Shown here: in pieces, positions 1 through 77 of the stretch
Layout: each line of letters starts with the position of its first letter
How positions within the stretch are numbered: position 1 is the first letter of the stretch
From: Escherichia coli
GTDB lineage: Bacteria; Pseudomonadota; Gammaproteobacteria; Enterobacterales; Enterobacteriaceae
Assembly (NCBI RefSeq): GCF_003334815.1
Contig: NZ_QOWO01000040.1
Reading direction: 5' to 3' (one strand)
DNA: 33,548 nucleotides
The notes under the pieces: generated by a model
The model's database searches: none
Seen by the model: the letters and a program-made list of their open reading frames with translations, nothing else
What the model was told of the DNA's origin: nothing
Position numbers and translations under genes: made by a program

Positions 1-30
1 CCTGACGGAAAACAAGTGATTTCCGTCAGG
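1..30. other. Perfect hairpin, 10-bp stem (cctgacggaa / ttccgtcagg) with 10-nt loop
   Basis: Read directly from sequence; sits in the spacer between the terminal inverted-repeat arms if the window is circular. Confidence 0.6.
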
Positions 31-39
31 GAGAAATCG

Positions 40-77
40 CTTAGCGGGTGTTATCGCAGAAATTCCCACGGAGCCCC
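40..77. repeat. Left arm of ~38-bp inverted repeat whose partner is at the window end (33472-33509)
   Basis: Reverse complement of 40-77 aligns to 33472-33509 with 3 mismatches. Confidence 0.7.

Follow-up and report, generated by a model that had tools for sequence, protein, structure and literature searches.

Inverted ends of an IncX4-type plasmid contig from Escherichia coli very probably reflect a Tn3-family transposon at an assembly break

Introduction

The window, by which we mean the whole stretch of Escherichia coli DNA that was analysed (33,548 nt), carries close to its two termini inverted copies of one short sequence, and a hairpin occupies its first 30 nt. This arrangement raises the question of whether the two ends form one structure and, if so, of which kind. 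A preliminary description, made from the sequence alone, offered two readings: either the window is a linearised circle and an imperfect palindrome of roughly 155 bp spans the junction, possibly as a resolution site, an origin or a recombination hotspot, or it is not circular and the inverted repeats bound the whole region. A third reading is developed here from the polarity of the repeats, the DNA that adjoins them and the state of the same locus in related plasmids.

Terminal inverted repeats and target duplication

Positions 40-77 of the window (CTTAGCGGGTGTTATCGCAGAAATTCCCACGGAGCCCC) and the reverse complement of positions 33472-33509 are identical at 35 of 38 positions; the coordinates and the three mismatches reported in the preliminary description are correct. 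Complementarity ends sharply at both edges of the arms, and given the base composition only about 5e-9 arm pairs of this kind are expected by chance in a 33.5-kb sequence. Read from the outer end inward, both arms run GGGG...CGCTAAG, and the GGGG outer ends point to the 33.4-kb body of the window, away from the window termini. Arms of 38 bp with an outer GGGG and an inner ...TAAG carry the signature of Tn3-family terminal inverted repeats. Both arms are adjoined on the backbone side by a 5-bp direct repeat, GTAAT (33467-33471 and 78-82), which had gone unmentioned in the preliminary description; a target duplication of 5 bp is the size made by Tn3-family transposition. The 38-nt arms are the terminal, transposase-binding inverted repeats of a Tn3-family transposon. 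The features on both sides of the junction, and the segment that they flank, are the following:

33467-33471, no strand: target-site duplication, copy 1 (GTAAT); same 5 nt at 78-82, single in NZ_LT795507.1
33472-33509, plus strand: 38-bp terminal inverted repeat, tnpA end (GGGGTTCCGTGGGCATTTCTGCGATAACACACGCTAAG); identical to the end of the 3,788-bp copies
33505-33548, minus strand: tnpA 3' end, last 13 codons and stop (...RTNRFNPKNFTFP, then stop); matches the C-terminus of the 988-aa TnpA
1-39, plus strand: innermost part of the putative res end, transposon positions 3712-3750; cut by the window start
3-28, no strand: palindromic 12-2-12 site, core of the hairpin (TGACGGAAAACA AG TGATTTCCGTCA); half-sites differ at one position
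40-77, minus strand: 38-bp terminal inverted repeat, res/tnpR end; minus strand reads GGGGCTCCGTGGGAATTTCTGCGATAACACCCGCTAAG
78-82, no strand: target-site duplication, copy 2 (GTAAT); same 5 nt at 33467-33471
83-33466, no strand: IncX4-type conjugative plasmid backbone, the insertion target; about 98% identity to IncX4 plasmids, and NCBIfam matches

The tnpA reading frame is cut by the window end, and its stop codon lies inside the inverted repeat. In full copies of the transposon, the sequence found at positions 1-39 runs on upstream into a 146-bp interval between tnpR and the inverted repeat.

The 3,788-bp transposon

Full-length copies in complete records measure 3,788 bp and consist, in this order, of an inverted repeat, tnpA (988 aa), tnpR (207 aa), the 146-bp non-coding interval and the other inverted repeat, tnpR overlapping tnpA by 20 nt. 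When the element was aligned with the window using BLAST, transposon positions 1-77 matched 33472-33548 (100%) and positions 3712-3788 matched 1-77 (97.4%); besides these two 77-nt ends, no further element DNA was found in the window. The res end of the window is unlike most database copies at 2 of its 77 positions and is identical (100%) to the copy in NZ_AP045059.1. The 988-aa TnpA scored 914 bits against NCBIfam NF033527 (cutoff 500) and could be aligned over its full length with that of Tn4430 (E = 1.6e-151). The 207-aa TnpR is a serine recombinase that scored 173 bits against the Gin invertase and about 90 bits against the gamma-delta/Tn3 resolvase. Such closeness to the Gin DNA invertase rather than to the gamma-delta/Tn3 resolvases is unusual for a Tn3-family resolution module. 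With its 38-bp inverted repeats, a 5-bp duplication for which an empty site exists and, in the full-length copies, a Tn3-type DDE transposase, the element is assigned on sequence grounds to the Tn3 family.

Hundreds of enterobacterial plasmids contain matches to the two 77-nt halves present at the window ends, each half matching on its own, and a gene annotated as 'Tn3 family transposase' covers one of these halves. All intact copies with duplications are 3,788 bp long; the database copies also include a 394-bp miniature and forms interrupted by IS26 or IS3, and in draft assemblies the element is encountered as stand-alone contigs of 3.6-3.9 kb. In the closed genome of strain Res13-Lact-PEA12-26, three plasmids each bear a complete copy, and a truncated one lies on the chromosome; the complete copies are flanked by perfect 5-bp duplications of their own (TATCT, GTAAT and AAAAA). 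Because three complete copies, each with a duplication of its own, occur in this closed genome, the element is active and can be multi-copy in one cell. In NZ_CP062881.1, another plasmid in which the transposon has inserted independently, the duplication is again GTAAT, and the sharing of this pentamer by two insertions could be a coincidence or could reflect a target preference for AT-rich pentamers. Public sequence records give the transposon no specific name beyond the generic 'Tn3 family transposase'. A full-text literature search with the inverted-repeat sequence returned human and mouse papers alone and no relevant match, and nothing specific was found in the literature on IncX4 plus Tn3-family. 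The element is of a known kind, namely a common, widespread and passenger-free Tn3-family transposon.

Several derivatives and relatives of the element were detected. The 394-bp miniature joins transposon positions 1-208 to 3603-3788 and is found in pECOED (NC_011754.1, 24219-24612) and five other plasmids. With one inverted repeat mutated to GGCG and lacking a target duplication, it is probably an immobile relic. A 3,809-bp relative is carried by a Roseibium sp. Sym1 plasmid (NZ_CP114789.1); its ends are 85-87% identical and the same tnpA-tnpR-res layout is kept. Matches in Rhizobium and Shinella are also among the alphaproteobacterial relatives of the element ends, and these relatives indicate that the element type has spread across bacterial classes. 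Plasmid pMS8345B (NZ_CP025403.1) and about 400 similar IncF/ColV-type plasmids contain an 81%-identical relic of the res end, composed of the palindrome and a degenerate inverted repeat and located between the cvaB and iroN virulence regions. This relic is the old scar of a related transposon.

Plasmid backbone and empty site

The segment between the two copies of GTAAT encodes the functions of a conjugative plasmid:

627-722: dqlB (type I toxin gene)
1385-2032: parA
4394-5266: rep
11565-12794: MobP1 relaxase
14712-17459: VirB4
23527-25389: coupling protein
30413-32566: topB
32563-32769: hha
32787-33251: hns

The plasmid V of E. coli KV7 (NZ_LT795507.1), which is 99.3% identical across the insertion region, has the uninterrupted site ...ATTGAGTAATGAAAATG... 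with one GTAAT. In ten more related contigs, hns, dqlB and parA are contiguous with the spacing of an empty site, and both arms are missing. In these 11 related plasmids and contigs, genes from the two ends of the window (hns on one side, dqlB and parA on the other) adjoin one another, from which we conclude that the backbone is a circle. The circularity proposed earlier is supported to this extent, that is, for the backbone; a palindrome across the junction is not. Furthermore, the GGGG ends and the target duplication are turned towards the 33.4-kb segment, which makes this segment the target rather than the mobile element. It is a complete IncX4-type replicon whose ends, except for the DNA between the arms, are neighbours on the circle.

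The backbone contains repeats of its own. Positions 6210-6629 and 8290-8709 are a 420-bp exact direct repeat, the copies being 2,080 bp apart. Each copy holds an 87-aa ORF (6363-6626 and 8443-8706) without an NCBIfam match, and a gene for a J-domain protein (6630-7145) directly follows the first copy; the repeat may have arisen by segmental duplication in recent times, or may serve as a substrate for recombination. A 91-nt inverted repeat of 99% identity (85 nt exact) at 3860-3950 and 10954-11044, 7 kb apart, encloses the region of the replication gene, its end lying a short way upstream of the genes for the relaxosome and the relaxase. Regulatory DNA may have been duplicated here, or the repeat might allow the 7-kb segment to invert. 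Clustered repeats of the GTACATCA and GACATAC types with nested perfect palindromes (1231-1374, 2028-2080 and 33258-33312) flank parA and lie just past hns, and are a candidate partition (centromere-like) site. Finally, a perfect hairpin with a 13-bp stem (742-772) lies 20 nt past dqlB, and is probably the dqlB terminator or part of the antisense-RNA control region of this gene.

The hairpin as a putative res site

The hairpin at 1-30 is perfect, as the preliminary description had it; its stem, given there as 10 bp, is 11 bp long (A11 pairs with T20) and closes an 8-nt loop. Its DNA folding energy is -11.5 kcal/mol (z = -5.75 relative to shuffled sequences). Perfect stems of 10 bp or more are found at six loci in the window, this one included, where 0.43 would be expected. 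A reading as an intrinsic terminator was rejected: no T-run follows the stem and a terminator scan gave no call. In full copies, the hairpin corresponds to transposon positions 3712-3741, at the end of the 146-bp interval upstream of tnpR that is proximal to the inverted repeat. Where tnpR and tnpA are co-directional, res is located in the interval upstream of tnpR. The half-site motif of the palindrome occurs five times in the 146-bp interval, against 0.9 expected. In the Roseibium relative, the same 12-2-12 layout is found 11-12 bp from the inverted repeat with one half-site identical, while the neighbouring 40 nt or so have diverged. In the diverged relic of the ColV-type plasmids, a G:C to T:A change in one arm is matched in the other, and the symmetry is kept. 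The crossover sites of invertases have likewise a 12-2-12 layout. Based on the recurrence of the motif and its conservation, we lean towards the hairpin being the crossover subsite (site I) of res, which a TnpR dimer would bind as double-stranded DNA, rather than a structure formed in vivo.

Why the contig stops

Both window ends lie exactly 77 nt inside the transposon, so that the midpoint of the unit formed by joining them coincides with the window ends; at this joint, ...GTACGAA is followed by CCTGACGG... When a unique edge of a de Bruijn graph reaches a repeat, it stops at the first k-mer that the copies have in common, which places its end exactly k nt within the repeat. For 150-nt reads, SPAdes uses by default a k of up to 77. 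Signatures of 77 bp at the ends of SPAdes contigs have been described (PMC9409062).

To simulate this situation, we gave the circular backbone the 3,788-bp element at its GTAAT site, put another copy in a different context, and followed local walks from unique backbone into each boundary. With two copies and k = 77, the edges stopped 77 nt inside the element and were identical to both window ends. At k = 55, 99 and 127, they stopped 55, 99 and 127 nt inside and were not identical to the window. With a single copy of the element, the walk read straight through. One boundary came to 76 nt when the second context shared a flanking T; in another context the result was 77 and 77. The simulation applies to the boundaries: the 85-nt exact inverted repeat and the 420-bp exact direct repeat of the backbone break a bare k = 77 unitig, and a whole-contig unitig simulation did not match the window. 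The assembler is assumed to have bridged these two repeats by reads or read pairs and to have failed at the 3.8-kb element. Repeats that fit within a read or an insert are routinely bridged in this way; for one of 3.8 kb this is impossible.

Taken together, we consider it very likely that an IncX4-type plasmid with a Tn3-family insertion was cut by a k = 77 assembly break at the element. The window would be a short-read contig of an IncX4-type conjugative plasmid in which the 3,788-bp transposon had inserted between hns and dqlB, replicative Tn3-type transposition duplicating 5 bp of the target (GTAAT). The same element was probably present in at least two copies in the sequenced sample; a de Bruijn graph with k = 77 would then branch at the element boundaries, and the backbone contig would end at the first shared 77-mer on each side, leaving out the 3.6-kb interior of the transposon. 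The hairpin at 1-30 would most likely be the palindromic crossover site of res, at which the serine recombinase of the element would resolve cointegrates. The mechanism of assembly, the assembler, its k value and the multi-copy state of the sample are what we infer in this account. The real plasmid would measure about 37.2 kb, some 3.6 kb more than the contig. Among the records searched, none covered at least 80% of the junction query, and the full element was not encountered at this site in any closed plasmid; nor did the insertion-specific junction match in three public collections (viral, metagenome and genome contigs).

Joined, the window ends form 154 nt that are complementary only in the outer 38 nt of each side; the 78 nt between them are not self-complementary, and the reading of the whole as a palindrome of 155 bp was rejected. 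When this fused form was sought as contiguous DNA, it was found in none of 72,556 plasmids and none of 5,426 complete E. coli genomes; the sole matches covering the entire 154-nt query are the 394-bp miniature in pECOED and five other plasmids. The palindrome of the preliminary description is thus most probably not contiguous DNA at all, its halves being opposite ends of the 3,788-bp transposon, and the evidence indicates that about 3.7 kb of transposon separates the arms in the source molecule. Of the functions suggested for it, a recombination system is indeed involved and a resolution site is probably present, which belongs to the transposon; a plasmid origin or a resolution site of the plasmid itself is contradicted by the empty sites.

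Alternative explanations

Inverted symmetry, a stable hairpin and a recombinase-type 12-2-12 palindrome are what one might expect of a native plasmid feature at the junction of the circle, be it a multimer-resolution site, an origin or a cruciform-forming recombination hotspot. Yet the closest relatives, NZ_LT795507.1 and the ten contigs, lack the whole unit at an uninterrupted site, each half is found independently at transposon ends in unrelated replicons, and complementarity is confined to 38 nt per side; this explanation is refuted by the empty sites and retains next to no probability. An equally negligible place is left for the idea that the repeats, lying as they do near both window termini, bound the 33.4-kb region as one large mobile element excerpted from a larger molecule. 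The polarity of the repeats is wrong for it, as their GGGG ends and the duplication face the 33.4-kb segment, which refutes the bounding role suggested in the preliminary description; moreover, their inner flanks are transposon-internal parts (the tnpA 3' end and res), and what they enclose is an entire IncX4-type replicon, the two ends of which adjoin each other in relatives.

Two further explanations retain the transposon and differ in what lies between the arms. The window could be a true circle of 33,548 bp bearing a genuine, freshly transposed 154-bp miniature (two inverted repeats and a 78-bp interior with a recombinase crossover site), mobilised in trans by the transposase of a full-length transposon and flanked by the GTAAT duplication. 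Both inverted repeats and a perfect 5-bp duplication are indeed present, an empty site exists, natural miniatures of this transposon are known from pECOED and five other plasmids (394 bp), and TIMEs are documented in Enterobacteriaceae (PMC13367494). Against this, the internal deletion would have to be joined exactly 77 nt from both termini, 77 being a default assembler k, and the circle would have to have been opened in the record at precisely this joint, for which the prior chance is about 1 in 33,548. The contiguous form is also absent from the plasmid and genome collections searched, and its 154 bp would fall below the 209-288 bp of the enterobacterial TIMEs described (PMC13367494). If real, it would be smaller than any other element of this kind described in Enterobacteriaceae; we regard it as very improbable. 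A little less improbable, if still unlikely, is that the contig broke as proposed but at a non-standard element, such as the 394-bp miniature, a truncated copy or a longer form with passenger genes or an IS. Only 77 nt are visible at each end, the interior lies outside the window, and the database does hold 394-bp as well as IS26- and IS3-interrupted copies. Intact copies with duplications are, however, uniformly 3,788 bp long, and a full copy is the simplest explanation of an insertion that is recent and shows intact inverted repeats and a perfect duplication. The full 3,788-bp transposon at a k = 77 assembly break therefore remains the preferred explanation.

Implications

Biologically, the case is a minor one: one more insertion of a common Tn3-family transposon in an IncX4-type plasmid. 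In other isolates, this type of backbone also carries mcr-1. The case also bears on the reading of draft assemblies, as terminal inverted repeats located on a contig at a standard k-mer distance from its ends can be the two ends of a collapsed repeat. If such contigs are treated as closed circles, a false 'palindrome' is created, and transposase and recombinase genes are under-reported.

Comparison with known systems

The element resembles Tn3-family unit transposons in its 38-bp GGGG...CGCTAAG inverted repeats, in the tnpA stop codon located within the inverted repeat, in the 5-bp duplication and in a DDE transposase of about 990 aa. It also resembles them in having a serine recombinase gene preceded by an interval of about 146 bp with repeated half-site motifs, the putative res. 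Its minimal tnpA-tnpR-res module, with co-directional tnpR then tnpA and res beside one inverted repeat, corresponds to the arrangement of the Tn21/Tn1721 type. It differs in that it has only a generic name in the public sources consulted, carries no passenger genes and encodes a recombinase that scores nearer to the Gin invertase. The res site I of Tn3 has a layout other than 12-2-12, and in this respect the putative crossover site found here differs from it.

With two Tn3-type inverted repeats, no transposase and a 5-bp duplication, the joined window ends resemble the TIMEs such as IS101, IMU and TIME244/MITEEc2 (PMC4133298, PMC13367494). They differ from these in that their contiguity is unlikely, given the 77 + 77 geometry at the contig ends, and in that other copies are lacking from the plasmids and complete E. 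coli genomes searched. For these two reasons, we did not file the joined 154-nt unit as a TIME. The contig ends are also comparable to the k-mer overlap artefacts of SPAdes, since they carry k = 77 nt of the neighbouring graph node. The familiar SPAdes overlap is, however, a direct 77-bp overlap on circular contigs, whereas here two different ends of one repeat node are involved, which look inverted because the transposon has terminal inverted repeats.
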